Shown one piece after another: positions 1-60,379 of a stretch of 64,000 nt of DNA. Under the pieces are notes generated by a model that saw only the letters and a list, made by a program, of their open reading frames with translations, was not told where the DNA came from and ran no database searches. The stretch lies in assembly GCA_008632985.1 (NCBI GenBank), contig QPGO01000168.1, forward strand, positions 1 to 64,000, written 5' to 3'. Source of the DNA: Psammoneis japonica (lineage: Eukaryota). Position 1 is the first letter of the stretch; each line of letters starts with the position of its first letter. Both the position numbers and the translations under genes were made by a program.

Positions 1-599
1 CTCTCTGCCGGTGTTGTCAACAATGGGAAAAGAGAGCGGCATTGTGTCGTCAGTGACAGAGGGGGCCCACTTGCACTTGTGTGCAAGCATTGCTTGTGAC
101 CCAACAGAGATGATCCCTCTGTCTGTGCAGGGAATTCCAAAACTCTGCCGTTTTGGCAATCTTTTGCTGGGTTTCTTTTCCACCACTGTGAAGACAAGCC
201 ACTTGCCTCCTCTGCATGCTTGCAGTTGCCCTGCTGTTTGAGCTTTCACAAAACTCACAATGGCAAGCCAAACATTTGTGTCACTTGACAGTTTCAAAAC
301 ATGCACGCTGACCAACTTTTTGCTGCTGCCTGCTGTTAAATCTGGCCGCTGCAGCTTCGCCAATGGGGCAGTGTTGTGCTGACCTCATGCTTGATTTTTT
401 GTCAATTTCCAACTGTGGTGGATTGGCCTCATGGCAAAGATGTCTTGCCTCTCAGTGGATCGTGTCATTCCCACTTAGCCACAGGGATCTCTGTCAGGTT
501 GTGAGCAATGCTTGCACAGATGTGCAAGCAGGGCTCCTCTGCCACTGCTGACAACACACAATCCTCCCGTTTTGTTGTCGACAATGCTGGCAAAGAGAG
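1..599. repeat. Degenerate inverted repeat, arms ~1-120 and ~481-599
   Basis: Reverse complement of 1-120 (agagggatca...agcaatgcttgcacacaagtgcaag...ttgacaacaccggcagagag) aligns with 481-599 (acagggatct...agcaatgcttgcacagatgtgcaag...tcgacaatgctggcaaagagag). Confidence 0.7.
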
Positions 600-7150: not shown

Positions 7151-8010
7151 CTAAGAAAGGGCTTCTTCTGCTTCTTTCCCGTCTCCTTTTCCGTCAACAA
7201 TGAGGCTTGCGCATTTTTTCAGATTGGCCTTTTCCGACTTGATCAGTTCTTTACAACGATCTTGAATGACCCACAAGTCAGCGTTACCCTCGATGAATTT
7301 CTCCCAGTCAATAACGGCATTCAACCATCCACGGAAACGTTCGTTCTGACAAAAATGATCCAGCACAACTTCACCTTGCTTTAAGTGCTTTTCTCAGCCC
7401 ACGAGTTGCCTTGTGTCATCGTGCACAACAACAAGTGGAACAAGGTCGCAAGCACGTGATTCTGGGCTTAACGATTTAGCGGCCCCACACCACATTTTGT
7501 CAACGCCCCAATCCGTTGGCTGGAACACATGCCAGGGAGTGAGAGCTTGGTCCAACAACCAGTCTGCAAAGTCTCCTCTCAATTGAGCAAAGGACTGTTG
7601 GACATGCATTGTTTGGATCGGTGAAGACAGTGCAAACTCTGGAACGCTGCACCTCTTCCACAACTGTGCTTCGTGGAATTGATGCTGCTCGTTCTTGTCA
7701 TGTTTTTCCCAGTCGAATGCATCAGCATGGCAGGTGCAATCTTGACTCCATTTGGAACAAACTTTCCATTGGCCAAGAGATGTTGGACTTGTCCGACATC
7801 CGTTGCTGGTGCACTGGTCGCTTCAAGATTGTGGGCCTGAGGAGACAAGAGCTGAGATCATTTCCTCCATGGAGGCACGTCGCTCTGTCGATTGGCCCAA
7901 GTTCATCCAGCGAACCGGCAGAGGCTCGGGCTCATGATGCACGTCAGCCTCGCATTGCCCCTCATCCAGAACTTCAGGTCAGAAAGATGGTTCTCCTCCA
8001 AGCCTGACAC
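7151..8010 (-). pseudogene. Internally deleted paralog of the GT25 gene at 20837-23628
   Basis: PLPVRWMNLGQSTERRASMEE matches PLPIYWINLEQSTERRALMEE; QPTDWGVDKMWCGAAKS and WEKFIEGNADL match the C-terminus. Near 7690-7710 the N-terminal part is joined directly to QFHEAQLW, skipping ~320 codons. Confidence 0.85.
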
Positions 8011-8131
8011 CGATGACGGCACTTCGTCATGTGACTCGACAGGTGCAGACGTGCTGACGCGTTCCAGCCCCAGGTGGGAGCTCGCAGTGCTGACGTGTGA
8101 CAAAAACAATTTTTGTCATCCGTCGCATGTT

Positions 8132-8410
8132 TCACACGTAGATTTCTATGTGTGACATTTAAAAAAAATTGTCCAGACTCGCTGTTTTGCAAAGCCCCAG
8201 ACATTTTACATGACAAATTTATAGAAACAACAATGCGCCAGTTGCATTCTTCAATGTCTGAAGAATGTAACTGGCCAAGTAAAAAATGATGTGCTTCAAT
8301 CATGTGCGAGTTTGTGCGTTCGCAAAATTGCCTCATTTTCTGTTGGCGATCATTGACATTTTAATTGCCGTGTGATTTTACTGCGGAGCTCGCACGTAGA
8401 AGTCTACGGG
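8132..8410. repeat. TA-retaining island bounded by two CGTAGA-N2-TCTA(C/T)G palindromes; possible DNA-transposon end
   Basis: tcacacgtagatttctatgtgtga (8132-8155) and cgtagaagtctacg (8395-8408); the interior has normal TA content while both flanks are eroded. Confidence 0.5.
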
Positions 8411-9941: not shown

Positions 9942-10413
9942 TAAGGGGCGAATCGAGGGAGGATCGAAGCCGCTGCCATTGACGCCACTCGAAACAGCTG
10001 CGCTCTAACCTTGTTTTGAAATTTTCATTGCTGTCCATTTGGGGTTAAGCAAGGGATCGAAGCCGCTCTGACGCCACTCGAAACACCTTTGCTTTGGCTC
10101 TGCTCCATTGGCGGACAGGCACCACCTCCAAAGCACGTGTGCCGTGTTCTTGGAACCAATGCTGTGACCACACAGTGCATCCATGTCGGAGTCAGATTGG
10201 TGTTTTCAAGGCCTTGAAAAAATCTTGACATTGGCAAAATGCAAACCAAAACCGGAGGGATTGAAAGGCATCACCAAAATGACAGGACAATCTTCAAAAG
10301 ATCGCTCTTCTCGACTGATGCTCTCGGCAGCAGAGCAGATGATCAAAATGTCTCCTTTAAAAAAAGACACCTGTGCATTCACACTGTTAAATTTCTGTGT
10401 CAAGCATGTGTTG

Positions 10414-11180
10414 TCAGCTGCAACTTAGTTGCCAATCCTTGTGTGCAAGCGCGCCTTCCATCTGGCCAAAGTCAGGGCGTGTGAGACTGGCTCCAAACTG
10501 ACCATCATGAGCAAGGTGATCAGCTGTTTCAAGCTTGGAAAAAGTTGCACTCATTCCCTTGGCATTTGGATTTTTTAATTTTTCCTGATGCAACTCAACC
10601 AGAATCTGCCCAACCTTGACCACACACCCCATTCTGTTTTTTGCAAAAAGCCCAACTCAAAATTCTTTCACATCCACCTTGAGACAGCATGTGTGAGAAT
10701 GACCAAGCTCCTTCACAACTGTGGCAATGGAGTTGATTGGAAAGTGAGCTGTGCTCAGTTTGTTTTAGCTGCAAAAGCCACAGTCTCCATGACAGATGCC
10801 ACAAATGCCTTCCCATCCACTGGCTCTCTGATGTTTGGATCAAACGCATGAATCTCACATCCTGATCTGACTGGTTGAACTCGTTCCTCAAAGTCAGGTT
10901 CACTGTTTGATCCCACACTGTGTGCAGTGCAGCCATTGCTGCTGCAGTGCTCATTTTTGACTCCACAAACAATCTTGGTGTTTTGGTCTGCTTGTTGCTT
11001 GTGGACTTGAGCAAGGCCACATGCCCACCTGCCTTCAACTGTGTTGAGCAACACAAGGAGATGGTGACTTTTTAAAATCCCAAAAGCAAGGAAGGCTGAA
11101 ACATGCACCAAATGGCTTTGTTCAGCAAGATTCCAAACTGCTGGCCTTCGCTGTGCATGTTTGACAACCATGCCCATCAC
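10414..11180 (-). pseudogene. Eroded Methyltransf_22 (METTL24/FkbM-like) SAM methyltransferase pseudogene
   Basis: KIVCG...CTAHSVGSNSEPDFEE...CEIHAFDP, then LKVDVKEFE and GQILVELH in successive frames; family pattern CxVYSxGS...FE...CEIHxFDP...LKxDxE...QILxExH. Confidence 0.7.
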
Positions 11181-12943
11181 TCTGCTCTGCAGTCTTTTGT
11201 GAGCACTCTCAAGCAGCCAACACAGACAGTCAGGATGTGATGGTGCATGTCTGCTGAGACAAGGTTTCTCCCGCTGACAGCGCCAGCATCATTTGGTTGC
11301 TCAAACCCTGTCTCAGCACACATTGCTGCATTCTGACTTAGAGAACTGGACCTTGCCACACCTGCTGCCTTGTCTGGCCACACAGCATTCCATGCAGTTT
11401 CTCTGATTTGCCTTCACCAAACTCCTGGGTGCACAAAAAGCACCTTTGGATCATTTCTTTGTCCTTTGTCTGTGTTGGCTGCTTCAGCCATGATTTCATT
11501 TTGCAGGTGGCATTGTTTGCCTTGAGGCATTTCAAATGTGCCAAGGCCTGTCTGGGATTTTGGTGTGTCAGAGCAAGCAAAAGCGTCCTTGTCAAAAAAT
11601 GTCAAAAGCCTTTTGTGCCCTCCTCCAAGCCAGCTCAGGTGCTGTCTCTGTCCTTCAATCTGCTGTGGCAATCATGCACTGCAAATTAAAAATGTTGTGC
11701 ATGAAAACAGATCCATGCATTTTCTCCCCACACTGCATTGAACATGTCATGAGGAAGAAATCGTCTGTGCCAAATGCATTGTGAACATGTTTTCCTCCTC
11801 TCTGTGGGCAACGGCCCTGCCCCAAAAGCTGTGCCTGCTGCTCACATCTGCACCCAATGCAAATTTTTTGAGCCCACATCAAAACAAGTGTGGACACTCC
11901 ATTCAGCCAGATTCAATGTGAACTGCCAACAGGGTGGGCTTGCTCTCCAGCTTGAACAGCGACAATTGCAACAATGCCTTTGTGGGTTTTTGAAGATCAG
12001 CAAAGCAATGCGTTGCTGTGATGCAGCATTGTGCAATGTGCTTGGTTGTTTTGAAGTTCATCATGCCAACGGCCATTGCTGCCAGAGGGCATTGAAGCAA
12101 TTGCATGTGTCATCCAAATCTGCATCTTTGCAACTTGATTTTTTCCAACAAGCAGTGCCAAAGCTGTCTCTCATTTCCACACTTCTCCAAAAAAATTTGC
12201 TCTCCATTTGTTGCTGCTTGCAGCACATCTAAAGTGCAGTTTGTTTTGCAAATGAGCTGGCGCTGCAGTGCTTGGTCACAACTGGAGTCATGGCTGCTCT
12301 CAGCGTCATTGCACAGAAATTGTGCAGAAGAAGATTGCCAAAAAAATCATTGTTGGTCTGTCCATCCATCTGTGCTTGAATGGCAACTTCTCAGGAAATC
12401 AACTGAAATGTCATCTGATCAAAAAGGTGTTGCTCTTTGCCACGCAAATCAAGGTGCCTTTGATTGGATGACATTTCAGCCAAGTTTCTGCAAAGTTGTC
12501 AGCTCCAACCACTCTCTTGCATGACACAGTGTGCATTTTCACATGATTTTGCATTTTTCCTCATGCAAAAAAATTGTTGTGATTGATGCGGCATTTTCGA
12601 GTGACTCCTGTTGCACCCACGGAGCCCGCTCTTGTCTGTGGTGACCAGCAGAGCAAATTTCCAGAGATGACACCCCCTTTTCAGCACTCTTTCCAACAGG
12701 AATCATTCGAAAATGTCGCGTGGGTCACAATTGACATTTTGCATGAGGAAAAACACAAAATCGTGCAGAAATGCGCACAATGTCATGCAAGAGAGTGATT
12801 GGAGCCAATGACTTTTCGGGAACTGAACTGAAATGCTGTCTGATTGACGGTGTTGGCCTTCACCATGTGAGTCAAAATGCCATCAATCAGATGGCATTTC
12901 AATTGATTTCCTGAGAAGTTGATGTTCGCACACGGATGGATGG

Positions 12944-13219
12944 TGACAGAAATCGAAGGCAAGTGGCAAGAATTCAAACAATGACTCCTTGCTGCTGTCT
13001 AAACAGCAGATGAGTCTCCGCTCAGAGACCGTCACAGGAGCTGAAAGACGTGCAAGTTGGCACAATCGGGCTGCTGTTGTCATTCTTGTGAGCCTTGTGG
13101 CTCGAAAGCAAACTGCATCGTGCACGAACGCATGGAACTGAAGCACACAAAACTGTGCACGGCAAACTAAACAGCGCGCGACATGTCGCACGCACCTGAA
13201 TCCTGTTCAAATCCTGCCA
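12944..13219 (-). repeat. 3' LTR of the copia element
   Basis: Aligns without gaps to 19730-20005 (~22 substitutions by hand count); preceded on the minus strand by purine tract GGGGAG (13220-13225). Confidence 0.95.
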
Positions 13220-16200
13220 CTCCCCAGTTTGCTTGAGGAGTCACAGAAACAGATTCGACTTCGGATGGAATGAAGTTCCAGAACATGAGGGGGCGGAGAA
13301 GGTCCCAGACTTGGGAGCAACCCCAATGCTTGCTGAGAATGTCAGCAGGGTTGCGGGAGCCTTCGATGAAGTGGAGCTCAAGGCAGCCAAAGGCAATTGC
13401 CTCGTGCACACGGTGGAACGACAGTGCGGTGTGTCGCTTGTGCAACTTGGAGTGCGGGATGGTGGCACTGTCTACAACCAACTTGTTGTCACTGAACATG
13501 CAACTGATGTCACGGATCGGGACGCCAAGGCAGCGCAGGGTGATGCGCAGGTCGACAATTTGCTCGACACAAGTCCTTGCGGCAACAAATTCAGACCCGC
13601 AGGTCACAGTCTCCATGGTGGCTTGCTTCTTAGAGAACCAATCAGCCGGGAATTTGTTGAGGAAGTGGAGCATTCCCATGACAGAGCGTCCGGTGAGCAT
13701 GCAATGGTGCAAGTTTGCATCGACGCAGTGGGTGGCAGTGACGAACTTGCCAAGGGGCGGTGGAGCATCCTTTGGGATCATCTCTTCTGCTTCGCCACAC
13801 ACGGAATGCATCCATTCATGGGCTGGAGCAGGGAGATCCAAACAGTCGGGCTCTTCTGTGCGAACGCGGAGAGTGCCATGTCGCATCTTGGAGAGGCACC
13901 CACAGACACGTTTGGCACGATCCAAGTGGCCTTGACGGGGCACAGCTCGGAAGCTAGAGAGTGACATGACGGCCGTGGCAATGTCAATTCGACCAAGGGA
14001 CACTGCCCATTGGAGTGAACCAACAAGAGACTGGAACTGGTGAATGCCATCGGGCCCCAGCAGTTCGGAAGTGTCCAGTTCGGGGTGGTCACCCTTCTCC
14101 AGAGGTGACAAGGCATTGGTGGCAGGTTTCTCCCCAAACAGTCGTGTGCAGCTGTCGACCATGTGCTCGATGTACTTGCGCGGAGACAGGCACAAGGTGC
14201 CGTCAGGATCCCGGGAAAAGTCACAGCCCAGATGGAACTCAATCGGTCCTGCACCCTTGAGCTTGAACTTGCACTTTTCCGTGAGAGCATCGACGAAAGA
14301 TTGAGGGTCCTTCATGGCAATGGCGAGGTCATCCACACAAACGGCAATGCATTCGCAGTGGTCGCCGTTCCCGCGCATCCAAATGTCGGGTTCGGCGCTG
14401 CAGGGGAAGAAACCTTCAGCTCGCAGGCAGTCGGCAAAGCACTCGTGCCAGCGGAGGCCGGAGCTGCGCAGTCCACACAGGGCCTTGTGGATGACAAGGA
14501 TGTGGCCTTCGAGTTTGCCAAATTCGGGTCCGGCTGCAATGTAGAGCTTCTCCTTGGTGGTGGCTTCAAGGCAGGCATTGCCAATGTCGGTGGCCCATGT
14601 CTCCAACTCGTTGAGTTCGGCCAGGAAAATCATCAGCCGAAGGCCACGGAGGGAGACTGCTCCGGAGCAGACACTGTCGATGGGTACGTCCGTGAGGTGC
14701 CCATCGGCTGTGAGTCGTGCCTTGTGGCAACCGTCGTGTTTCACGTCGTGCACCAGGTGCACTCGGATCTTCTTGTGTCCCGCAGGAGGAGTGGAAGACT
14801 CGGAGGGCCCGCAGTCATGGAAGACTTTGTATTCCTTGAGTTGGTCCATCTCGAGATTAGTTGCGTCTCCCCATTTGTGGTTGCCGTTGCGTTCGTCTAG
14901 TGACATGGCGTGTTTGCAGTTCCGGGGAACTTTGCATCCGCACTTGCAGCGAGGTGCAGTGCGGAAGGAGTGAAGCTTGGCTTGGTTGGCCATGCGGAAT
15001 GGCTTCTTCTGGCGCCTTGCGATGGTGCGGAACCGCTTCCAGCCATCAGTGTCGAGAAGTCTGTTCTCTCGTGCATAGATGGCGCAGGTGACAGGGTTGT
15101 CCATGGCGATGATGGCAAGAGGCTCGGACGTGATCTTCCCACTTTCCCATTCAAGCATGATGTTGTAGCTTGAGCCTTTCCAGGTTGGGTCATGAGGCTT
15201 CAGAGGTCCTTCGTGTGACACAATGCGTCGAAATTTCCAAACAGCAGTGTCTTCATCTTCTTGCTCAATGTGATTCATGATGTCGTTGCAGGCCAGGACT
15301 TCCTCGCATTCGTCGTTGTTGACAGAGCAGACGAACTCAGTGAGCTCGGGATTGCCGTTCACTTTCCATTCGTGGTCTTCGACGGCCTTGACGATGCGAG
15401 CTCTGTGGCGTTGTCCATCCTCTTGTGGCTGCATGAGGAAGGTGCGTCCGATGATGTCTTGCGGATCAAAAACTGGCATCTTGGGTGTCCTGATCTCCCC
15501 ATCAGGTGAATCAATGGGGTTGTCATCATGGCGAGATTTGATGATGGGTTCAGGTGGCTCCCCATCAGGAGGATCAAGATGCAGGTTTCAAACGGCAGGA
15601 TCAGTGGCAGCGGATCGTACGTTGGACCAGCAGAGGATCTTCTGAGTCTCATCAGAGAGAATCTTGAAGGTCATCTGGTGGCCGACGTGCTCAGCAATGC
15701 CAACAAAGCGTCCACACAACTCACGGGATTCGGACGGCCAATCGGAGTCATCGAGGTGGAAGTGCACGGGTTCCCACCAGTGAAAGCGAAGCAATGGGCT
15801 GATGTCCGGGGTGGAGCCAGTGAGAGTCTCGAGGGGCGTGCGCCAGTGGAGACGTGGGGACGCTGTGTGGTTGAGCATGAAGCACACGTGCATGAGCGCC
15901 AGCAGCCATGTGTGGGCAGGCAAACCGAAACAATCCATGACAGTGTTCGCCATGCGCTTCACGGTCTGGCATCAACGTTTGGCAAAGTTTTGGTGTTGCT
16001 GGTGAGGCTCACTTTGCCAGCTGGAGACAAAGAGGGCTCGCAGGATCCCGAGCACCTTGTTGCTGATCTCAACTTGAGCACGGTCGCCGATGAGTTTGGA
16101 TGGAGCACCACGCTCATGGATCTGATCCTCGAGTGTGTTGACAAACTCTTTGTCCGTTTTGGTGCCGTAGACGTCAGTGATGGTAGACTCGGTGCCAACA

Positions 16201-18799
16201 AACAGCTGGGCGCTGGTGCAACCAGAGTCGACGGCTGGGGTGTCAGCACAAACGGTGTCAGTGGCGACAGGCTCGTTGCGGCGGTGCACATTAAGGGTGG
16301 GGTTGGGCGATTTGTGGGCCTTCCCAAGGTGTGCACCGGTGGGCATGCGGGCGCACTGCGTGGTGCAGTCGAAAGTGCGACGAACCGCATCGGCAGGTTG
16401 GAAGCCAAAGTGAGGCCGAAGAGACTCGAAGGGGGGGTCCTTGGGCTGCACAGTGTGCTCCGGGGGCGGAACGTTGTCGTCCTTGGGGTCAATCGCGTGT
16501 GGATGACACTCGTAGAACACGTCGTCGTTCGGAATGAGATGGTCATCGAGGGCGGACACGTGATCGGCAGACAAGGAGGCAGACATGATGGTCTTGTTGA
16601 CAACGACACGATGACGGCAGTTGCCGCATTCGTCAAACAGGTTGGCAGTGGGATCGTCCTGCAGGTCAGAGATCACGTCACACCACTGGTCGTCGTCAGT
16701 GACAGAGTGATCGAGGACGGAAGGATCCCACCATTCGGCGTCAGTGCAAGGTCGCATGGCAACATGAGGCAGGCCGCCCTTGATGTCAATTGGGATGACA
16801 CAGCCATCAGGGGTGGCAATGCATTGCAAGCCGTTGGGCACCTTGACAGAGCGATCATTGACATCCTGTTTGTGCCATTCGAGCTGGCCGCAGGAATGAA
16901 TGGTCTTGCCCTTTCCCATGCATGCATGCTGATGGAGGATGGCGATGACGGGACCACGCTGTGTCTCAATGACGGCACCAGCAGTGACAACAGGTGTGTC
17001 CACCAATTGATGTCGTCAATGCCCTGAACGTCGACTTGGCGAGAGGTGTGTGCAATGACGCGAACATCATCGCCAGCAATGCCGCTGTTGGCCCCACGAT
17101 CAACTGGAGCACCAGTGCATGTGGAGCGATGAGCGGAGGCAGAGCAAATGACATTGTGGTCATTGATGCGGCGGCAAGTGTGGCCGTTAAGTTCTGTGTC
17201 ATCGGTGGGAGCGGGTGAGGTAGAGGGAGTGGCGGATGGCCCCGGTCGACCAGCGTTGGGGGCTTGGTTAGGAGACAACAGGCGTTGCAGATCACCGGGT
17301 GGCAGTGGCTTGCACTTGGTGAGGTGCGCCAGGATGGGATTGTCTGAAGTGGCATCCACATTTGGAGCGGGGTCACCAGAGTCAGCAGGAGTCATGTTGG
17401 ACAAGTTGACATCACCGTCACTCCCAAGGTGTTGGTCATGAAGGTTGGCCGTAATGGACTCATGGCAGTTGCTGGCTCGCGGGTTACGGGGAGGCGGATG
17501 AGAATGCTCAAGGATGATCGCCTTGGAGGAATGGGGCAACGAATCCCAAATCCGTTGGTGGTCGGGAGGGAGACATTTCCATTGGTCACCGGCAAGGCTG
17601 GGACCGCGGGTGCAGGCAGCATCAGCCTGAAGGACGTCAATGTTGATGTCACAGAACACATCATCGGACGGTTCCTCGGAGCAGACGTTGTGTGCGCATG
17701 TGGCGCGTCGGGGAGCTCGAGGTGTCGTCTTGGGTTGAAATGTGCTGTCGCACTGAGCCGCCGCGGAGAGGAGCAAGCCACAACATTGATCGCATGTGAG
17801 GCTCTTGCCACTCTGCGTGCGATGCTGATCAGCTTGGTTCTTGACAGCACGGAGTTCCTCGACAGGATGTGCAGCATTCTCGAGCATGATGCGCTTCTGT
17901 CCTTCAGAGAAGTGGTCACTGGCCGGGATGAGTGCCTCACACTTGCGCAACTGATCTTGCCAATGAAGGATGAACCCGTGGGTCGGACCTTTCCAAGCAC
18001 CATCACCAAGACGTGCGGTGGTGAGGCACGTGAGCAAGGTGGAGGACTCGATGGATGCACGGGTGGAGGCAAGCGCACACTTGGACAAGGCGTGGCAGAC
18101 GGTCTGGGCATCAGAAGACCCCACATTTTCGCGAATGAGAGCCTTGCCCTTGTCGGTGAGAAGGATGCATTCGAAGATGGTGAACATGCACTTTTGCTGT
18201 TCAGCAAAGAGCAGTTTGTCTTCGGGGCTGGTCAGTTTGTACGACGAGTCTAGAATGCACTCGATGTCTTGGGCACGGGCTTGTGCCACAAGTGAGGTGT
18301 GCCAAGTGTGCCACTGCTTGTCAGATTTGAGAGCCGTGAAAGCGGTGGGGTCATGCTTGATGCCTCACTTGAATTCTCGCACCGGGTCGCGTGCCTTGGT
18401 CGGGTTGGTGACATGCGGAGGTGCGAGGGGCGAGCTGCCGATGGACACAGAAGACATGCAGTCGGGGCTGAGGCGGTGGGCAAGGAACTCCTCATGCGCG
18501 AACAACGAGGAGTCATTGGCAACGTCAAGACCTTCATGAGCTTTGACAATGTACAGACTGGTTGGAGCTGCCAACATGTTCTCATGGCCGCGGGGCAAAG
18601 GGATCACATCAGTGCCACCACCGCACTCAAGTGAGTCGATTTGGGACGGTGTGAACGTGAACAGCTCTTGATGCAAGTCCGCACCGTCGTGGGTCAAAGC
18701 CAAACGAAGAGGGCTCCCAGCACCTTGGGCAAGCACGGTTCCAACAACGTGCTCGAAACCATCGGTTTGTTGCTGAAGAGTGAGAACCATGGCAGACAA
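13220..18799 (-). pseudogene. Copia gag-pol pseudogene with stops, frameshifts and systematic Tyr->Cys/His changes
   Basis: Gag FK*GIKHDP...AQARAQD; protease VDRGANSGIAG; integrase VATDTVCADTPAVD...SEPHQQHQN; RT HKARL, DIGNACLEA, KALCGLRSSG, CVDDL; RNaseH CVDANLHHCMLTGRS, ETVTCGSEFVAAR, NPADILSKHW. Confidence 0.93.
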
Positions 18800-19729
18800 A
18801 AGTGGTGTCAGGACAAGCGATTCTTGTTGGGACGCGAAGGTGGACTTGAAACTTGGGTGAGAATAGACTTGACTTGAAGTGGACTTGACTTGAAATCTTG
18901 AACTACCTTAAAATCAGAAGTCGCCGGTCTGTGCTGTCCCGTTCGTTGTCAAGTGCTAAATTTCCTGTCCGGTCCGCAGAGTTGTGCCGGCACGTCCAAA
19001 CTCGCAGCTGGCGGCACTTTGGGTTGCTTGCAAGCGGAGCAGCGGGTTGCAAACCCCTGCAGGTGAGCTGACCAGAGGTGGACAAGACCCCCGAACCGTT
19101 CTTGTTTTGTGTCGGTTGGATTTCCCGATCAGGCTGGCCAGTTGACGCAGGCGTCAGGCACTGTGGACGAATGAACAAACGCGGGAAAAACACCCTTGCC
19201 CCAACGCAGGCTGCAATCACGGCCACTTGCTCTCACAGTCGTCCTCGTGGACCTGGTGGAACTGTGGAGCACCAGCAGTCTGGGGCAGATCAGGTGCAAT
19301 GGACTCGGTGTGCTTGCAGAGTGGCAGCAAAGCCGCAGTCCAAAGAGTGGTTGCAAGTTCTTGGCCGTGAAGATGTGTGCACACTCATGTCTTCAGCGAC
19401 AAAGATCCTTGAATGTGTGGGGTTCTTGACCGTTAACCGTTGAATGGGCACATCAAGGGATGAGGATCAAGGATGGACTTGGACATGACCGTTGAATGCA
19501 TGTCTTCAGTGACAAAAGGCAGTGTGATCAATCCAGACACACAGCAGTGAGGAGACTTGACGGTGACGTTAAATTCCTGCCGATGCCTGGCATTGAATGC
19601 GCGCAGACTTGCCGATGTACATGCAGAATGCACACGGAGGTCCGCGCAGAATTGAAACAGCGTCGTCGGTAAATCAACGACGATGATGGCGGTTGCTCAA
19701 TGGGTTGACAATGAGCAAGACTGTCAATC

Positions 19730-20005
19730 TGACAGAAATTGAAGGCAAATGGCAAGAAGTCAAACAATGACTCCTTGCTGCTGTCTAAACAGCAGATGAG
19801 TCTCCGCTCAGAGACCGTCACAGGAGCCGAAAGACGTGCAAGTCGGCACAATCGGGCAACTGTTGTTGTTCTTGTGAGCCTTGTGGCTCGAAAGCAAACT
19901 GCATCGCACGCGAACGCGCGGAACTAAAGCACACAAAACTGTGCGCGGTAAACTAAATTGCGCGCGACATGTCGCGCGCACCTAAATCCTGTTCAAATCC
20001 TGTCA
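19730..20005 (-). repeat. 5' LTR of the copia element
   Basis: TGACAG...CTGTCA terminal inverted repeats; contains a 22-bp perfect palindrome at 19959-19980. Confidence 0.95.
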
Positions 20006-20836
20006 GATGGACAGACTGATGACAATTGTTTTCAGTGCTCTCCTGCACAATTTCTGCGTGGTGACTCTCAGGACCCGAATGATTCCTGTTGTTTTTGTCA
20101 AATCATTTGACCAAGGGGCTGATGGTGTCACATGCCTCTGCTGGTGAGGTCTTGGGTGCATCCACACTCTGTTGGCCGCAACGGCAACATGCCAGCGTGT
20201 GGGTGAGTTTGTGAGGTGCAAAGAACATGGCTCCTCAAATCAAAATTTTGAGAAGAAATCACTGAACAGTGTCCATCTGCAGCTGGGGACAAGAGAGAAT
20301 GCCACACCCTGATTCCTCCTCAATTGTCAACATTGACCACATCAGAACAGCACACTCACCATGGTCGACGGCTCTTTTTTTTTTTTCACACAGAAAGATC
20401 AGAAAACGCGGATGACGGACGAGCAAAACGCAAAAATATGTAGTCGAGTTATTCTAGCTTGGTGCACAACCCAACAACACGAGATTGTCAAATGCTTCGG
20501 ATTAAAGATGATATATCATTATTCAGAAATATATAGATGATAAATTTTTGTACTACAGTAACAAGATTCAAATTCGTAAGTGTATTTTAATACATATTAC
20601 GGATTAAATGCTTTTTATTCGATGTACAACATACTTAAAATCTGATATAAATCGTTTTTATCTATAATCTAATATTACAGACCATTTAAACATATAAAAT
20701 AAATACTTGTTAAAGATGAATAATGTTATTGGATCTAGCACTTTTTTCAAATTTCAAAAACGCAGATGCACCACAAGACTCCTCCCCCAAACCACACACA
20801 ACGCGAAAAACACCACAGCGATCAACAGGTGTGACG

Positions 20837-23628
20837 ATGAAGGTATCGTTCGGTGCCGTCTGCATCCTGCTAGGGTGGATGGCAGGCTATGGTCTCGCCG
20901 ATGGCGTAGACGCGGCAGCACCATCCTCGGTGTCCGGTCTGGAGGACACCATGACTTCAGCAGAAGAAATCAAAACCAAATCAAGTCTTCGAGGCAAAAC
21001 CATAACTGACTTTCGATCAAATGAAATGATTGATAATTCGGATCAGGAGCACCGAAGGGCTCAAATCGAGGCAGACAAGTTTTGGCGTGGACATCTTAAC
21101 GGGATCTCAGGACCGCCCACCTCATCGCCGACTCCTGCTCCTAAGAAGAAGCTCCATCCCGTCCTACCGAACATTTTCAATAAGAGAGGCTCCAAAAGGA
21201 CAAGAGGAAAGAAGGGACGAGGAGGTAGAGGAGGAAAGCGCAAAGGAAAGCGCAAAAAGAAGCGTAAAGGAAGGCGCGGCAAGAGGAGCGAAGGAGGAAG
21301 GCGTGGCAAGAGGAGCAAAGGCAGTGGCGAGAGCGGAAAGAGCAGTAGCAGGTCTGTTCCCATTCGAGATTTTACCAGAGAGTCCAATCGCAGAAAAGAA
21401 AGAGGAAAGGGTCGAGAGCTTGCTTTCAAGCCAAAGGTCGTTATTGATCTTGGATCTGCGGTTGAACACGAGTCCGTTAATTCCGAGCTCCCGAAACTGA
21501 AGGCCGAAGGAGACAAGTCCGTCGGCGTTTCCACTACTCCCGAAACAAGCTCAGAGACAAAGCTTGATATTGAATCTGCCTTAGAAGCAAGTAACTCACA
21601 AGAGAAGTTGGACAAGAGTATGTTACTTCCGAGCTCTCGAAGCTGAAGGCTGAAGGAGACAAGTCCGTCGAAGTTTTCACGTCTTCCGAAAGCAACTCCG
21701 GCACAAAGCTTGGTCTTGAATCTGAGTTAGAAGCAAGTAACTCACAGGAGAAGGATGAACAAGAGCTGGTTACTGTCGAGCTCTCGAAATTGAAGGCTGA
21801 AGGCGACAAGTCTGTCGAAGTTTCCCCGCTTGCCCAAACAAGCTCAGAGACGATTCTTGAGCCGGCGAAACTCCCTTGGATAACTTCTGAGGAGGCTACG
21901 TCGTCTCCCCTTCCTATATACTGGATCAACCTGGAGCAATCGACAGAGCGACGTGCCTTGATGGAGGAAAGGTTTTCAAATCTAACTTCTTTTGGACACG
22001 AGTTCAAGGCAACTCGCATTCCAGCGGTGAATCAGGAACAAGTTCGGAAACCGTTAGCCACTGGAAGATTCAAGGCAAAAGGGGTTAAATTTGTGCAACC
22101 GAGCGCAGAGACGTTGGACTCGCAGAAGCACCTTCAGAAAGAGTACACAGATATTGAAGCAGCATCTCTTTTGTCACACCTGAATGCAATCTTGACAGCA
22201 TATAGAGCTGGACATGAGTACGCTTTAATTATGGAAGACGATGCTCTCATAAACTCATACTTTCTCTCAAATTGGAAAGATTATATGGAGCTTGCTCCTT
22301 CGGACTGGAACGTTCTCCAGTGGTCTACAAGCAATGAGGCAGTGCAGATGGAGACCAAGAATATGGCTAAGGATCCGTGGGTAGCTTGGGTCCCAGACTA
22401 CTTTGGGTGCACTTGTTACATGATACGTCGTCAAGGAATGCACGAGATACTTAGACATTCTTTCTCTGAAGATATTCATGGAGAGCCATTGTGGCATGTC
22501 AGTGAGTCCGAGTTGGTGGTGGCAGACGAAGTCGTCTACTACCTCGCAAAGCAATCCTACACTTCGACATTCCCGTGGATTGGGACAGGCGCAATGGTCA
22601 GCACTCATGATGATGGACATCAAACATTCGCAATCGATCTTGCAAAACCGATGACACGGCCAGAAAGGGTCTTAGTTGTGACGAGTAGTCGCATAAAAGA
22701 TGAAGCCTCTATCTCCGCAGAATTGAAAAGGTTGACAATGGATGCCGAATCCTTATCCAAGTGGCATCCAACTTCTACGTGGATTGTCAATGCAGTCGTG
22801 GTAAATGAAGATCTTAAAGCAGCATTTGTTGACAAGGCATCCGGGCTGCCCTCTAGCATCCACCTTCGCATCCGTGTCAATGACAAGACGTTCAACAAAT
22901 TTGCACTAATTGAGAATGCTCTCAAAGAAGAATTCATTCTGTACGACTACGTTCTCTTCAAGGACAATGACATGCGATTGGCAGGTTTCCCGTGGAACAC
23001 ATTCATGGAGCGCAAAGGCGACACGATTGTCTCTGGTCCTCTCCATGAAGCTGTCGACGAGTCCCTTATACGACATGATCTTATACCAAAGAGACAGTGG
23101 TATCAGTTCCACGAAGCGCAGTTGTGGAGGAAAGACAAGGTTCCAGAATTTGTGGAAATTTCCCCCATTCCAACTATGTATATCGAGCAGGCCTTTGTGT
23201 TGATGAGGGGAGACTTTGCTCACTGGTACTTTGATCAAATGTTAACGCCGTGGTTTGTGGAGCAGCCAACGGATTGGGGCATTGACAAGATGTGGTGCGG
23301 GGCTGCTAAATCCTTTCGGCCGGAATTACGTGCCTGTGAGATTGTTCCACTTGTCGCTGTACATGAGGATACGAGGCAAATTGCAGTTGGAGAAGAGTAT
23401 TTGATACAAGGTCGATCTGTGATTCAGCGTTTCCGGGAAAATGAGCGTTTCCGTGATTGGCTGGACGCCATCATTGGTTGGGAAACGTTTATTGAGGGCA
23501 ACGCCGACCTCTATGATGTTCAATCTCGATGCAGACGCCTTTTAAAGTCCGATATAGCCAATCTGACAAAGTGCGCTGAGCTTGTCGTCGACGGACAGAT
23601 AGACATGCAGGATCTTGTCTTTACGTAA
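20837..23628 (+). CDS. Secreted glycosyltransferase family 25-like protein with a basic K/R/G segment, 49-aa repeats and an uncharacterised C-terminal domain; one 1-nt frameshift near 21612
   Basis: Signal peptide MKVSFGAVCILLGWMAGYGLA; GT25 motifs IYWINLEQSTERR, ASLLSHLNAI, YALIMEDDA, CYMIRRQG. Repeat unit 1 is 146 nt against 147 nt for unit 2, which locates the frameshift. Confidence 0.8.
21485..21860 (+). repeat. ~2.5 copies of a 147-bp coding repeat (ELxKLKAEGDKSV...)
   Basis: Units start gagctc at 21485, 21631 and 21778. Confidence 0.9.
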
Positions 23629-24370: not shown

Positions 24371-27300
24371 TGAGAGCCAAAGCCATGGGTGTGGAGACAC
24401 ATCACCTCCCTCAATGTGCCCTGCCTCTCACTCTGCACCATGCAGGATTTTCACTCAAACCACACAAGTTTTGCATGACAACATCATGAAAAAACATGTG
24501 CTGCTGTCACAGTTGTTGTGGTGTGTCGTTTGAGTCATGTTTTGTTAAAATGCCACCTTTTGCTCAAACATGCCATGTTTGAGAAAATGGGACTTGATGT
24601 TTGAGGAATTGCTCAAACTTTGCACAATTTTCAGCAATTGCTCAAACTTGACAAACATGTGCATTTTGAGCATAAAATTGATGCTGCCAGCAGTGTAAAA
24701 CTGCTGTGTGGTGTTGGCCTGCTCCACAGCACTTGCTGCACATGCTGCTGTTGCTGCTCTTGCACTGCATGCAGGTGTCAGTGCAAAACAAATGCAACAG
24801 ATTCAAGGTGTTTTTTGTCGCCATTGGTGACAAACAACACAGTCACCACCACATTGCAACACGAGTGATTGTTCCTCAATGACAACAATTTCAAGAAACC
24901 CAGCGACAATCCAATGAAAGACATGTGATGCAAACTCAGCCAGCCACACCTGAAAATGTTGAAAGTTCCCATGGAATGGGCTTGTTGGGGGGGCTGTGTG
25001 GACCAACAAGGAACAGTGTCATGTGACAACATTTTGTTGTTTGTTTTGATCAAAAACATTTTTCAAAGCATGCCTTGGCATTGACACGCACTGCAACATT
25101 GTCATTTGTTGTTCCAAGTCAAAAATGTGGCACAAATGGATTTTCGGTGCTGGCACCAGTCATCACTTTCAAATGTTTCTTGGTGTGGTGTTTGCTTGTG
25201 TCCACTGTTGTTGCAAACATGTGCTTGTTTGGGCAGTCTTCTTGCGTGGTGCTGGGGACAATCTGGCCTTTGCTGCACATGGTGGCAGGATCATTCATGT
25301 GGTGGGTGAGCTGCCTGCTTGGGGGCTTGGCATGACACAGCTGGAAAGTGCCTTCTGCAACTTGCAGCTCTTGAGTGCCTCAAGAGTTGTGTGAGTCAGA
25401 CAGTTTTTCAAAAACCATGAGTGTCAAGTGGTGCACACCTGTGCCACAAACTTGGCCACACATCCAGACTCAAGACATGTCAAAGAAAAACACATCTGTC
25501 GCTCACACGCTGACAATTTCTGTGAGCTCACTTCACACTTGGTTCCACCTGCAGCTGGAGTGCATCCAAACACACCACAAATGACACACTGTGGACATGT
25601 GTGCTTGAAGACAATCACAAAAACACCCCTTTTTCCATTGGCGGTCATTGATTTGCTCATTGCCACCTGACAATTTTGCTGCAGAGCTTGCCCGCAGAGA
25701 TCTGTGGGCCCAACATCACATGGCTCCTCACCCAGGGCCAGAGCTCATTGTTTGCAAAATGCAACAAATGAAATGAGGTGCAGCAGAGCAACAAAACTGG
25801 TTGTTTGTTTTTTGGCATTGAAGATGGGCACACATGGATCATGATCCAGCACATGACTTGCAGAGCTTGCAAGCAGAACTCTGTGGGACAAACACCCAAG
25901 AATTTTCCAACCAGAGCTGGAGCATGTTTGCAGCTGTGTTGCAGCAGTTGATGAGCTCAAGATCTGAGTGTGGGGACAACACACAAGGGGAACTGCATGG
26001 CATGTCACATTTTTTGTCATCACCTGAAGTTCGCGCACATGCTTCAGTGCAACTTCACCTGTGTCTTGCAAGCCAGTGCTGCTGATGGGTGCCGTGGTTG
26101 CTTGCAGCTTTTGGCAAAGAGAGGGTGTGGCAAAACAAAATGAAAAATTGGCAAGGGCAAGCCATTCCAAAAAACAATGGCACAGGTGACATCACAGCTG
26201 CATTTTAAATCAAGCACCATGAGACAATGCCTCACATCAATGCAGGCTGTTTGTCAATGATGGATTGTCAAGATGAGGTTGATTTGGTCCAGAGCTTTTG
26301 CTTGAGCAACATCAGCTGTTCAACAGGAGAAAATCTTTGAATGCAGAAGATGACACATTGATCATGCGGTGCAATGGAAAACCTCTCACAGGGCAGCAGA
26401 CCTGGATTTTTCTTGTTTTGCACCACGCACTGCTGCTCACGTTTTAGAGTTTGCCGCCATCCAACATGTCACTGCCAACCACCTCTGGCACCACACATGA
26501 CATTGCAACAAGAATGAAAGGCCTTTTTTCCACCTGCAGAGCAAAGGGAGAAGGATTTCTCATTCTCTTGCTGGCAACATTGCTTCTTCATTCTTTCTCT
26601 TTCCATCATTGAGTTGTTCTCAAGTTGAGAGAATCATCGTGTGCTCAGAAAAAGAGCAAATCAATGGCCATCACAAATCTGCAGTCACACCCAGAAACAT
26701 TTGCAAACCTGCAGCTTTCTCCCACTGGTCACAGCCGGGTGGGTGCAACGTGAGAGTGGTTGATGCCATCGACATTGATGGAGCAACAGCATTGTCATTC
26801 AAAACAATGTCTGCCGGCATCGACAAGGTCGTGCAATGAGCGTTTTGTCATTTCGTAATGTGGTTTGGGGGCCCCGCTTGCACGCAGCTAAGTGAAGCTC
26901 ACAACCTGAGAGTGATCCACTCTCCACATGGGAATGATGCCACTCCACTGCGGCAAGACAATGACTCTCTGGCTCAACGAATCGGCAAAATTGGCAGACT
27001 GCAGTGCCAGCCATCCTCACTCCACAAACCATCTGCTGCTGCAAAAGAAAGAAAGAATGGCCCAACAGCGACTGCGACCACGTGCAACAGCCAGTTGCTG
27101 TTCCTCAAATGTCATCGCCATCTCTGTTGCAGCAAAAAAAGTGATGCCGATTCCTCTTCAGGTCGGTCAATTGCAGCAGCAGCAGGTGTCACAATGTTGG
27201 AGCTTTCTTTTTTGTCTGATCCTTCCATCCCACCACACTGCAGAGCACTTGCAGAGAGACTGTGTTGTTGAGAATTCAGCATTCACATGTGGGGCAAACT

Positions 27301-27380
27301 CGCGAACCGAGACAAAATCAGGGATTGCTGTGGAATTGGCGCTGCAAAACAATGAAATCCACGCCTGCTGCATTTTTTCA

Positions 27381-30010
27381 TCAAGTGCGTGGCTTTGTGC
27401 TTGCCAGACAGAACATCGAAATGCCTGCTGCAATGTTCAGAACAAATGCCACAATGGCGCGCACCTGTCCAACACCCCATGCGCAATCAACCTGGCACTG
27501 GTTTGTGGTCCGGGATGTCAGCATCGAGAGACTCATTGCTCCCACTAAAAAACAGAGACTGGCAACCATCCTCAAAGCCCATCTGGAAAAGCTCCGGCAG
27601 CTGAGGGTTGGGCTCAGCACCAAAGCAGCAACTCCAGTGGCAATGGAAGTGATGGCAATGATTCTTCTGCATTTAAACGGAGCATCCTCATGGTCCGGGG
27701 CCCTGCTCCGCTAAAAAGAAAGGCAACGGCAGCCAAACAGCACGCCCACATCTTCATCGGCAGCATCCAGAAAGCAGGTTGTCAGTGCAAGACAAGTGAG
27801 CAATGCTCCCAGAAAGCCGAAAAAGGGAGGGAATGCAGTTTTGCCACCATGCGGGCAAATTGCACCATTGAGGAGAAGGAGAATTTTACCAGTGAGAACA
27901 GCCAAGCTTGCGACGGGGCAAAAGCACAACATCTTTTAACAACATCATCTCTTCGGCGACGAACACGTGCCATTTGAGCTCGGAAGCTTCGCGTGGCTTT
28001 GCACTTGCCAGACAGAACATCGAAGCACCCGTGGCGACATTCAGAGCCAATGCCACAATGGCATGCACCTGTCCAACACCCCAAATGCAATCACCCTGGC
28101 ACTGGTTTGTGGACCGAGCTGTCAGCATCAAAAGACTCATTGCTCCCACTGCAAAAAAGAGACTTCCGACCAGCCTCAAAGCCCACTTGGGAAAGCTCCG
28201 GCAGCTGAGAGTTAGGCTCAGCACTGACGCAGCAACTCCAGCGGCAATGGAAGTGATGGCAACAATTCTTCCGCATTTGAACAGAGCATCCTCATGGTCC
28301 GGGGCATGGCTGCACTCGAAAGCAAGGCAACGGCAGCCAAACAGCATGCCCACATCTTCATTGGCAGCATCCAGAAAGCAGGTTGTCAGTGCAAGATGAG
28401 TGAACAATGCTCCAAGAAAACCGAAAATGGGAGGGATTGCAGTTTTGTCACCACATGGGCAAATTGTGCCACAACAAGGAGAAGGAGAATTTTGCCAGTG
28501 AGAAGTCAAGCTTGCAACGGGGCGAAAGCACAACATCTTTTGAGCAATGTCATCTCTTTGGCAAAGAACACGTGCTGTTTGAACTCGGAAGCTGTGCGTG
28601 GCTTTGCACTTGCCAGACAGAACATCAAAATGCCTGCTGCAATGTTCAGAACAAATGCCACAACAGCGTGCACCTGTCCAACACCCCAGACGCAATCACC
28701 CTGGCACTGGTTTGTGGTGCAAGCTGTCAGCATCGAAAGACTCATTGCTCCCACTGCACAAAAGAGACTGGCAACCATCCTCAAAGCCCACTTGGGAAAG
28801 CTCCGGCAGCTGAGAGTTAGGCTCAGCACTGACGCAGCAACTCCAGCGGCAATGGAAGTGATGGCAATGATTCTTCCACATTTGAACAGAGCATCCTCAT
28901 GGTCCGGGGCACGGCTGCGCTCGAAAGCAAGGCAACGGCAGCCAAACAGCATGCCCACATCTTCATTGGCGGCATCCAGAAAGCAGGTTGTCAGTGCAAG
29001 ATGAGTGAACAATGCTCCGAGAAAACCGAAAATGGGAGGGATTGCAGTTTTGTCACCACATGGGCAAATTGTGCCACAACAAGGAGAAGGAGAATTTTGC
29101 CAGTGAGAAGTCAAGCTTGCAACGGGGCGAAAGCACAACATCTTTTGAGCAATGTCATCTCTTTGGCAAAGAACATGTGCTGTTTGAACTCGGAAGCTGT
29201 GCGTGGCTTTGCACTTGCCAGACAGAACATCAAAATGCCTGCTGCAATGTTCAGAACAAATGCCACAACAGCGTGCACCTGTCCAACACCCCAGATGCAA
29301 TCACCCTGGCACTGGTTTGTGGTGCAAGCTGTCAGCATCGAAAGACTCATTGCTCCCACTGCACAAAAGAGACTGGCAACCATCCTCAAAGCCCACCCAG
29401 GAAAGCTCCAGCAGCTGAGGGTTGGGCTCAGCACTGACGCAGCAACTCCAGTGGCAATGGAAGTGATGGCAATGATTCTTCTGCGTTTAAACGGAGCATC
29501 CTCACAGTCCGGGGCATGGCTGCACTCGAAAGCAAGGCAACGGCAGCCAAACAGCACACCCACATCTTCATCGGCGGCATCCAGAAAGCAGGTTGTCAGT
29601 GCAAGACAAGTGAACAATGCACCGAGAGAGCCAAAAATGGGAGGGGTTGCAGTTTTGTCACCACATGGGCAAATTGCACTGTGACAGGGAGAAGGAGAAT
29701 CTTGCCAGTGAGAACAGTCAAGCTTGTGACGGGGCAAAAGCACAACATCTTTTGAGCACATCATCTCTTCGGCAAGGAACACGCACCATTTGAGCTCGGA
29801 AGCTGGCACTGTCTTTGGTTCTTCGTCAACAGTTGCTGATTCCAAGTGCCTCGGCCTTGTTTGTCCTTGCTCAATTGTCAGAAGGTCAACATCTTCGAAT
29901 GACTTGCATGCTTGTGGATCCTTTGGCTTCGTTTCTTCTTCATCTGCTTGCGAACTTGTCTGCATTTGTGGTGACGATGCGAGACGGCAGAGCATTTCCT
30001 CATCAGGCAT
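27381..30010 (-). pseudogene. Eroded multi-pass membrane-protein gene whose TM-encoding part forms the 605-bp tandem unit
   Basis: Unique hydrophilic N-terminus (MPDEEML...ATVDEEPKT) followed by repeated hydrophobic segments (PIFGFLGALFT, IIAITSIAAGVAASVLS, ALRMVASLF, AIVAFVLNIAAG) and a CQGDCxWG loop; no Tyr. Confidence 0.5.
27385..29803. repeat. Four tandem copies of a ~605-bp unit
   Basis: tttga(g/a)ctcggaagct recurs near 27973, 28578, 29183 and 29789; ORF pairs 28407/29012 and 28294/28899 are nearly identical. Confidence 0.92.
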
Positions 30011-31494
30011 GTCAGCTGGTGTTGGCTTCTTGTTCGTGGTTTCTGTGAGCAAAAGAAGACGCCAAGGGAACACAGTGTGAAGTTGGTTTTGCCATGTGTG
30101 CAAATTCTGTGTTGGCGTTCGCGATCGCGATCGGCGAGTCTTGGAAATCGCACCCGGACCCATGCACGAGTGCACAACATCATCATGATGTGACTCAGCA
30201 TCGCATCTTTGTTTTGATGCATGCCAGGAATGAAGAAACAAGCCGTGGCAATGGCTTGATGGCCTTGGTCACATGAGAAACGACTCTCTTTTGCGTTGCT
30301 GCAACTGCAGACTCAAGACGAGTTTTGTTTGCTGTTGCGTGCTGTGCATTTCACGGGCAGAACATCAGAGCCGTTTTGAAAAATGAGACCTCGGACTTCG
30401 GACATGATGACGTCATTCGTCCTTGTCAGAATCTTGACAAGCTCACTCACAAGGGTCATCGGAGTGCAGCAGGTTTCTTGGCTCTGTTGACTTTGGTGAC
30501 AACGGTGCATTCTTTGTGAGTTGTGATTTAAAGAGAGGGTCCATGATTCACAAGGGGCTTTTCACAAGCACTGTGGGGCCCACCGCAACGAGGTGCAGCT
30601 TCTGCAACATGCACGTGGACAATGCTTCTGCTGTTGGCACACTGCACAAAGCATTCCTGTGTCTCACTTGCATTTTCCATGGTGCTCCAGTGCCATCTAG
30701 ACGAGTGCTTTCTTCTGTGTCTGCGAGACTTCTTTTGGAACTTGCATCACCGTTGTTCTCCTTGCATGAGTGGACTGCTTCCAACGTGCCTCTGCAGTGC
30801 TGCAGTGCCGTCCTTTTCCCTTGAGTTGCTGAGGAAATGTTTGTTCCCAATCCTTTGAGGAAGCCACCCTTCAGACTCATGTGCTTGATGGCAATTGTGC
30901 TGGAGTTCTTCACCCGCCAGAGCAACAGCGCAGCAGCAAATCCCTTGGCAGTTGTCCACATGAAGGGCAGCTGAATTTGAGGCACCTTGGAGCACAGACA
31001 AGATGTTGGACTCACAAAGTCCCAAAAAGCCACCATGTTTTAGTGCATTCACAATGAGGTCATGATCCACACATGCACCTCCACAGGTGGCCGGAAATGT
31101 GGTGGCAGGAAGCATTGTGGTGTCAGCAATCTTCATGGTTGATTTGCTGTTTTTGTGACGGAAAAAACATCGCGTGTCTGTCATGGTCACGGAGCGGAAG
31201 CAGCTGCGGGCAACATGCAGACTTGCGGGGGGTCCCCGTTAAGTTGCGCGCCGGTGCAACACACAGCACATGTGCGCATCTTGCTTTCTGTTCCATGTCA
31301 CTGCAGGGTCACGCATGTTGGGGTGATTTGTGGTTGTTGTGTCATGACACACTGCTTGCAACACCAGCATTCCCCACATCTTGTTCAAACATCCGGTTTG
31401 ATCCCAGCAGATGCAATTGTGAGGATGAGTGATGCTGCACCCAGCAAGAAGGCCTTTTTTCCATGCAGATGGTGTCCGCGTGCATGCTGCCCCG

Positions 31495-60308: not shown

Positions 60309-60379
60309 TTGTGCTGACATTGTCACATTGATTTCTCGTTCTAACAGGAAGAAGGCCACCGGTGATTTGTTGTCATTCG

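Follow-up and report, generated by a model that had tools for sequence, protein, structure and literature searches.

How can a retrotransposon reverse transcriptase (RT) lose almost every tyrosine while the rest of the protein stays well conserved? This question is raised by a Ty1/copia long terminal repeat (LTR) retrotransposon on the minus strand of a 64-kb stretch of DNA from Psammoneis japonica (contig QPGO01000168.1, positions 1 to 64,000; hereafter the window). A first-pass annotation, made from the letters of the sequence, had marked positions 13220 to 18799 as a copia pol region with systematically rewritten tyrosines. That span does lie within the element, but the true element is larger and extends from LTR to LTR (12944-20005); the copia identity is supported by an RVT_2 domain, paired LTRs, and a 5-bp target duplication. 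The earlier interpretation is right in substance, and the effect is wider than had been noted, in that TpA dinucleotides have almost disappeared from the element and from other repeats of the window. We consider it rather probable that this loss reflects TpA-directed A:T→G:C hypermutation, brought about by an enzyme that deaminates adenine in a T-A-Y context within chromosomally integrated, silenced mobile elements.

The amino acid changes were examined in the pol open reading frame (ORF). A search of 5.8 billion proteins yielded 6,747 scored candidates; relatives at E ≤ 0.001 numbered 1,061, and the 120 best of these, almost all of them metagenome proteins, were 55 to 66% identical to the pol ORF. 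From the 120, 41 homologs were chosen and aligned. Tyrosine accounts for five of the 806 residues in the pol ORF (0.62%) versus 4.22% in the aligned homologs, and cysteine for 4.47% versus 1.13%, with all other residues within the normal scatter of the homologs. At columns that were at least 80% conserved, the 21 tyrosines were represented by 15 Cys, 4 Tyr, 1 Trp, and 1 Phe, whereas 351 of 387 other columns were kept. Using a majority of at least 50%, the RT part had 31 tyrosine columns (21 Cys, 5 Tyr, 3 Phe, 1 Trp, and 1 His) and retained the consensus residue at 478 of the 561 others (Fisher p = 4e-16), which agrees with the annotated rewriting of tyrosines in an otherwise conserved protein. 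In the integrase part, 12 tyrosine columns read 5 Cys, 4 His, 2 Phe, and 1 Tyr.

The RT active-site box reads CVDD instead of YVDD exactly where it had been placed (14328-14339), a position at which 98% of the homologs have tyrosine, and the motifs KALCGL, DIGNACLEA, DSVCSG, RCKCGCKV, HCVDANLHH, TCGSEF, and LRCLGVP each contain a Tyr-to-Cys column. Two details of the annotation had to be revised: the His residues of HCVDANLHH, taken as derived from tyrosine, are conserved His, and LVHDVK shows an F-to-H change relative to the consensus LVFDVK. Histidine outcomes, also claimed, were found at four of the 12 tyrosine columns of the integrase part but at only one in the RT part. The companion changes that had been predicted (V→A and I→T) were present: V→A occurred at 4 of 33 Val columns, including two GTA→GCA changes, and we also observed one L→P as CCA and I→T/A as ACA/GCA.

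The loss is specific to TpA. The element contains 39 TA dinucleotides versus 346 predicted by its base composition, an observed-to-expected ratio (o/e) of 0.10 to 0.11, whereas the o/e values of AA, GA, CG, and TC are 1.00, 1.11, 0.78 to 0.79, and 1.23, respectively; CA and TG are in excess, and the GC content is 0.56 versus about 0.47 nearby. The six frames of the element region contain 24 TAA, 26 TAG, and 302 TGA stop codons, compared with 142, 132, and 301, respectively, in a gene block of similar size. TpA is part of both tyrosine codons (TAY), and no synonymous codon avoids it, so that its loss wipes out tyrosine; as the TAA and TAG stops vanish too, the frames remain open and the rest of the protein looks conserved.

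The effect, which had been ascribed to tyrosine and to one element, turned out to be specific to neither: TpA-free sequence makes up about 61% of the window and extends to noncoding repeats and an unrelated ORF. We counted 133 TA in 39,000 bp of TpA-free blocks versus 817 in 20,550 bp of gene blocks, where the TpA o/e is 0.5 to 0.7 and tyrosine is normal. The TA map of the window is bimodal, with sharp rather than graded borders; to the right of the 5′ LTR, for example, 430 bp without TA are followed by 43 TA in the adjoining 500 bp, from 20437 onward. Tyrosine content is 1.3 to 3.3% in host ORFs versus 0 to 0.6% in ORFs of the TpA-free blocks, and the normal values of the host genes rule out an odd genetic code. 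The loss is confined to repeat domains, and the recognizable host genes, namely, a GT25 glycosyltransferase, three DUF7467 genes, and a DRL-type oxidoreductase, are confined to TA-normal blocks. A Pfam scan of the 47 ORFs of at least 180 amino acids outside the element gave matches in gene blocks only and none in TpA-free blocks.

An independent replicate is provided by the tyrosine-free ORF at 57942-60305. In a library of 1.84 billion proteins, this ORF had 114 relatives at E ≤ 0.001 (best identity, 36%), and 15 aligned relatives contained 2.5 to 4.3% tyrosine. Its 14 tyrosine-majority columns read 6 Cys, 4 His, 4 Phe, and no Tyr. No Pfam family was found in eight homologs of its family (P0121) scanned at E ≤ 0.001, and the 16 members searched up to E 1 gave only scattered, weak, single-member Pfam matches. 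The family had no solved relative. Assignment of the family as a phage 5-hydroxymethyldeoxyuridine kinase or amino-acid:DNA transferase was rejected, with an Atlas score (0.84) under the trust level and no Pfam support. The neighboring 432-amino-acid ORF at 56756-58051 (plus strand) contains 0.46% tyrosine.

Both strands were affected. Pooled over three ORFs, the tyrosine columns gave 32 Cys and 9 His, in line with the two-strand changes that the first-pass annotation had held against one-strand RNA editing. At conserved pol columns, sense-strand T→C changes were found at V310A and V600A (both GCA), L196P (CCA), and V293T (ACA), and sense-strand A→G changes after T were found in three of five I→V replacements, K84E, and T446A. 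Since T→C and A→G both occur on the sense strand, one-strand RNA editing cannot account for the pattern. Loss also depended on the base 3′ of the adenine. When TpA-free blocks were compared with gene blocks, TA survival was highest in TTAA (0.37), TTAG (0.33), and CTAA (0.25), about 0.01 in ATAC and GTAT, and 0 in ATAT. A two-strand multiplicative model fitted all 16 NTAN classes with rough loss exponents of 3.15, 1.70, 0.91, and 0.48 for 3′ T, C, G, and A, respectively, and the trinucleotides in excess as products were TGC/TGT and CAA/CAG. By this rule, TAY codons mostly become TGY; the fitted exponents predict, as a hand estimate, about 70% Cys, near the pooled 78%.

Timing was addressed by comparison of copies. 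The two LTRs differ at 22 positions, or 20 events: eight CG versus TG/CA, three TA versus TG/CA, two TG/CA doubles, four other transitions, and three transversions. The 5′ LTR retains five TA and the 3′ LTR two, and two shared TA are in slow contexts. Because LTRs are identical at insertion, the three TA sites at which they now differ show that TA loss continued after integration. Other copies were examined in contigs of four runs (X1-X4) of one sample, possibly the assembly's own data. The copy number of the family is very high, as 12,671 contigs from run X1 could be placed on the element; 2,458 contigs matched it at ≥99%, and all 30 depth bins were covered. Differences among copies comprised 132 A>G, 110 T>C, 99 C>T, 99 G>A, and 60 transversions. 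Among the 40 best-supported of the 518 variable sites, which were classified individually, 22 read TG/CA in the element copy and CG in the others, and four (13198, 13443, 19065, and 19475) read TG/CA in the element copy and TA in the others. TpA was thus still being lost in the integrated copy and, by our own count, about as fast per site as CpG.

The element copy itself is dead, largely through CpG-type damage and one indel. The RVT_2 match (Pfam PF07727) scored 82.3 bits versus a cutoff of 31.6. The integrase-part frame aligned with the N-terminal part of 24 long homologs, and no integrase Pfam family was found in it at E ≤ 0.01. Autonomous coding capacity has been lost through TGA codons at 15588, 15972, and 18365, a frame change near 17012, where some other copies have one extra base at 17011-17012, and CVDD in place of YVDD. 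Position 18367 is G (CGA) in all other copies compared, so the TGA at 18365-18367 is a private CGA→TGA change. CpG decay is probably the source of two of the in-frame TGA stops, and of at least one. The insertion site lies in an older repeat, in which the sequence flanking the target duplication on either side is devoid of TpA and almost devoid of CpG. The coordinates are collected in Table 1.

Table 1. Features of the retrotransposon and TpA-free regions of the window
Feature	Position	Strand	Remarks
Target-site duplication GATGG, left	12939-12943	.	Same 5 bases flank both LTR ends
3′ LTR, 276 bp, termini TGACAG..CTGTCA	12944-13219	-	92% identical to 19730-20005; 2 TA, 15 CG
RT/RNase H ORF, 806 amino acids, Tyr 0.62%, terminated by a retained TAG	13167-15587	-	
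RVT_2 reverse-transcriptase domain, residues 268-479	14151-14786	-	Pfam PF07727, E 5.4e-23
RT active-site box, CVDD versus YVDD in homologs	14328-14339	-	TGT at 14337-14339; Tyr in 98% of homologs
Integrase-part frame, shares the RT frame, TGA at 15588-15590 and 15972-15974	15588-17015	-	
Gag-side frame, 563 amino acids, 1 Tyr, overlapping the pol frame	16673-18364	-	
N-terminal gag-side ORF, terminated by private TGA at 18365-18367	18365-18907	-	
5′ LTR, 276 bp	19730-20005	-	5 TA, 21 CG
Target-site duplication GATGG, right	20006-20010	.	
Unrelated hypermutated ORF, 788 amino acids, 0 Tyr	57942-60305	+	In TpA-free domain 54501-63500
TpA-free blocks of the window	1-3500, 10251-20436, 24501-35000, 43501-46000, 50001-53500, 54501-63500		About 39 of 64 kb
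TpA-free domain with the element and older CpG-poor host repeat	10251-20436	.	TA counts per 500 bp, TA positions

What process could leave such a footprint? In the reading we favor, a host process would convert TpA to TpG or CpA in silenced mobile DNA and would have run almost to saturation. Either strand would be targeted, with a chance set by the nucleotide that follows the adenine (T>C>G>A), such that TAY would mostly give TGY (Cys) and sometimes CAY (His), and ordinary CpG→TpG/CpA decay would proceed in parallel. The agent would be a DNA-acting enzyme, most plausibly a TadA/ADAT2-like adenine deaminase, that serves genome defense. The TpA dinucleotide is self-complementary, so that oxidation of the T on the opposite strand would leave an identical footprint, and a TET/JBP-like enzyme that oxidizes T could be the agent instead. 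We also entertain, more tentatively, a defense similar to fungal repeat-induced point mutation (RIP) but running in the opposite chemical direction, in which a T-A-Y DNA adenine deaminase would leave essentially every repeat free of TpA, tyrosine, and TAA/TAG. Elements may then still be copied while tyrosine-less, and families of transposable elements (TEs) may be born dead or may evolve TA-free as an escape.

Several observations weigh against deamination on the chromosome as the full account, and some of them point to editing within the retrotransposition cycle, in which an adenine deaminase would act on genomic RNA and/or minus-strand cDNA, in the way that APOBEC3 acts on C, and every new insertion would be TpA-poor from the start while an intact master copy stayed unedited. 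The enzyme, its DNA (rather than cDNA) substrate, and its defense role are putative, and mutation directions were inferred from proteins 55 to 66% identical and from composition rather than from an unmutated ancestor or sister copy. The baseline of the context model was the gene blocks rather than true ancestral repeats, which makes its exponents rough, and the Cys:His ratio of 21:1 in the RT part, versus 11:8 elsewhere (Fisher p 0.006), exceeds the estimate of about 70% Cys. Postintegration loss amounts to three LTR sites and four family-majority sites, so the bulk of the loss could predate insertion. TA stands at 0.11 while CpG is still at 0.79, and two TA are still shared by the LTRs; by a rough hand scaling of rates, postinsertion loss might fall short of what is needed to remove >95% of TAT. 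Much of the TA loss may have been inherited from source copies, through repeated cycles or editing during retrotransposition. At none of the best 40 of the 518 variable sites did other copies restore a tyrosine codon, which, together with the very high copy number, the near absence of TA at a CpG of 0.79, and LTRs that are 92% alike, would suit editing in the cycle; the two LTR TG/CA doubles also fit preinsertion loss slightly better (rough expectation about 1 versus about 5) but are too few to decide. Nevertheless, we judge that explanation unlikely, as the seven sites above lost TA after integration, and TpA is just as absent from the older repeat around the element, from the remaining repeat blocks, and from the unrelated ORF, which has no retroelement domains. 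In the published case described below, moreover, the process targets integrated, single-copy, silent viral DNA.

Adaptation of the TE lineage is less likely still: an active element under TpA-directed attack, or exposed to a TA/UA-specific nuclease, would have had its TpA purged by selection and might be functional with Cys. Raw codon-position counts against 64 relatives suggest such a silent route (per 1000 codons, T in third position before A in first position changed by −65 and C before A by +60, with NTA at −36 and NTG at +21), but this comparison is confounded because the element is C3-rich (0.44 versus a median of 0.28), and the position-normalized ratios at the same third-to-first junction disagree, with a similar increase of TG and CA. 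Amino acid replacements of the types that A→G at the first and T→C at the second codon position should produce are at about half of a rough unselected expectation, and the frames look intact apart from private CpG-type stops, both as adaptation would have it; yet an active enzyme is hardly to be expected with 21 of 31 conserved RT tyrosines replaced, that of YVDD included, and noncoding repeats are likewise TpA-free. Systematic miscalling of a modified T or A at heterochromatic TpA as C or G would account for a loss that is almost complete and follows domains, which is how a modification bound to chromatin would behave. We regard this sequencing or assembly artifact as very improbable, considering the X1 contigs that match the element at ≥99% across all depth bins (within one sample that may be the assembly's own), partial versions of the footprint in three relatives assembled from other metagenomes, the matching spectrum that Illumina sequencing of mutation-accumulation lines gave in the published case, and the TA-site differences between LTRs inside one assembly. 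Equally improbable is a genome-wide neutral bias that removes TpA everywhere except in genes under selection: the gene blocks are indeed already low in TpA (0.5-0.7), but the TA distribution is bimodal with sharp borders, and gene-adjacent noncoding DNA is TA-rich, with 43 TA in 20501-21000 beside the 430-bp TA-free stretch.

TpA-directed hypermutation on the chromosome has one close precedent, the chlorarachniophyte Bigelowiella natans (Mettrop et al., 2026, bioRxiv 10.64898/2026.01.13.699255). In mutation-accumulation lines, two integrated viral regions received 231 of 302 nuclear single-nucleotide mutations; all but one of the 231 were A→G or T→C, and every one of these 230 lay on TpA. RT and DDE domains were enriched among a subset of genes low in TpA, and an ADAT2-like deaminase was proposed as the agent. 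This type of hypermutation is further defined by a local de novo mutation rate raised about 1000-fold. The window resembles this case in that only TpA is targeted and becomes TpG or CpA depending on the strand, mobile or foreign chromosomal DNA is affected while host genes are spared, and TpA-poor, CpA+TpG-rich clusters remain as the long-term footprint. In our data, the confinement to TpA is seen as a footprint (22 of 31 tyrosine columns read Cys or His) and not as observed new mutations, and the sparing of host genes holds within the 64-kb window. Unlike the B. natans nucleocytoplasmic large DNA virus region, where the reported o/e is 0.45, the window is saturated (o/e 0.0-0.1) over about 61% of the 64 kb; its targets include a high-copy LTR retrotransposon, and it adds the 3′-neighbor rule, tyrosine erasure, and colocated CpG decay. 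The preprint's main text makes no mention of retrotransposons, LTRs, copia, tyrosine, diatoms, or sequence context. In our literature search, the preprint was the sole match for TpA hypermutation, and nothing on diatoms was found. On the favored reading, the window adds an extreme new case to a kind of hypermutation whose first description is very recent.

Among other systems, fungal RIP can be regarded as the nearest functional analogue, in the opposite direction. It shares with the window a dinucleotide-specific, transition-only, saturating hypermutation of mobile or repeated DNA that leaves dead but recognizable elements; it differs in converting CpA to TpA, which yields AT-rich and stop-rich repeats, whereas the window loses TpA and its TAA/TAG stops and has a GC content of 0.56. 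RIP itself was rejected as the cause, with TpA lost rather than gained, GC up to 0.56, and CA and TG in excess. APOBEC3 likewise kills retroelements by deaminase-like, context-dependent changes that become fossilized in the genome, but it deaminates C on minus-strand cDNA and leaves one-strand G→A changes, in contrast to A:T→G:C at TpA on both strands, at least partly after integration. APOBEC-type editing was also discarded on the C→T-type changes, which are CpG-bound (eight of the 20 LTR events and 22 of the best 40 sites), and on the TC o/e of 1.23. ADAR has an A→G outcome and a preference for 5′ U in common with the footprint. Its neighbor preference is loose, and many A contexts are edited. 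In the window, by contrast, AA, GA, and CA are untouched, and sense-strand T→C and postintegration LTR differences are present; ADAR hyperediting fixed by retrotransposition was set aside given the nine Tyr→His changes, V→A as GCA, L→P as CCA, and the restriction to TpA. The tRNA adenosine deaminases TadA and ADAT2 act on A34, which always follows U33, and the TadA substrate is U-A-C-G. Their requirement for a 5′ T/U and acceptance of a 3′ C resemble the T-A-Y footprint, although 3′ T beats 3′ C in the window. The element resembles diatom Ty1/copia elements (CoDi) in its TG..CA LTR ends, 5-bp target duplication, putative integrase part before RT, and RVT_2 domain, and is unlike them in being dead, its coding frames interrupted by TGA at three sites and shifted near 17012.

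Partial footprints were found in a few relatives. At 80 related metagenome loci, the TA o/e of the pol region ranged from 0.31 to 1.07 (median, 0.71), and none approached the element of the window; one of the two search patterns required YVD, which biases this set against mutated copies. The pol relative P0096 had 13 Tyr, 5 Cys, and 5 His at 29 tyrosine columns, and P0058 had 12 Tyr, 7 Cys, and 4 His at 26. L051, a 2561-bp metagenome contig with a TA o/e of about 0.3, had nine Tyr, no Cys, and five His at 17 columns. The next nine tyrosine-poorest homologs had no Cys at tyrosine columns. The Cys/His bias seems to vary by copy, with His only in L051 and both residues in P0096 and P0058, which hints at strand-coordinated episodes. 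Under the more tentative reading above, the footprints in these three unrelated environmental relatives suggest that the system may be spread across several protist lineages.

If the favored reading is true, TpA-directed hypermutation would not be limited to two viral inserts in one chlorarachniophyte. In at least one further eukaryote, it would strongly shape the repeat fraction of the genome and would run to saturation on LTR retrotransposons. A further implication would be that nature has an enzyme that edits A to G in DNA and leaves a defined T-A-Y footprint, which bears on the evolution of genome defense and on base-editing enzymology. TpA-free repeats are, in addition, an annotation trap: because TAA and TAG are erased, long false ORFs arise in all six frames, and conserved-looking, tyrosine-less proteins can mislead gene callers and estimates of TE activity. 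In the 8-kb stretch 12000-20000, 43 ORFs of at least 80 amino acids overlap, such as a 505-amino-acid ORF at 15510-17027 (plus strand) antisense to the integrase.

The older repeat blocks (1-3500, 10251-12900, 24501-27000, 43501-46000, 50001-53500, and 54501-56000) had TpA o/e values of 0.00 to 0.05 and CpG o/e values of 0.06 to 0.4. CA/TG were at about twice the expectation in these blocks, and CGC was retained about two times better than CGA, CGG, and CGT. A single N is present at 24369, about 130 bp ahead of a TpA-free, CpG-poor block. At 27385-29805, also in a TpA-free block, lies a tandem array of four units of about 605 bp that are 87 to 90% alike; this period is beyond the longest handled by Tandem Repeats Finder (500), and the tool returned nothing. 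The first unit contains five TA and each other unit one, and the mutation spectrum of the array is ambiguous.

The genes of the window are long, apparently uninterrupted ORFs. The GT25 ORF was 46% identical to its best database match. On both counts, the host is probably not B. natans. Positions 7190-7700 correspond to a diverged fragment of the GT25 gene, identical at 359 of 523 positions to 23102-23576 on the opposite strand, and adjoin a 660-bp TA-free stretch (7478-8138) in an otherwise TA-normal block. Of the 18 TA sites in the GT25 gene, one is kept in the fragment and nine read TG/CA, and the reverse comparison gave similar proportions; the fragment may be a hypermutated gene duplicate. 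Three consecutive DUF7467-domain ORFs at 39850-42797 (plus strand), in a TA-normal gene block, are rich in Cys (3.7-5.4%). The DRL-type NAD(P)-dependent oxidoreductase gene (DRL_cat and SAF domains) lies at 48137-49699 on the minus strand; its Atlas neighbors are almost all bacterial, and the gene is a possible transfer into a eukaryote.

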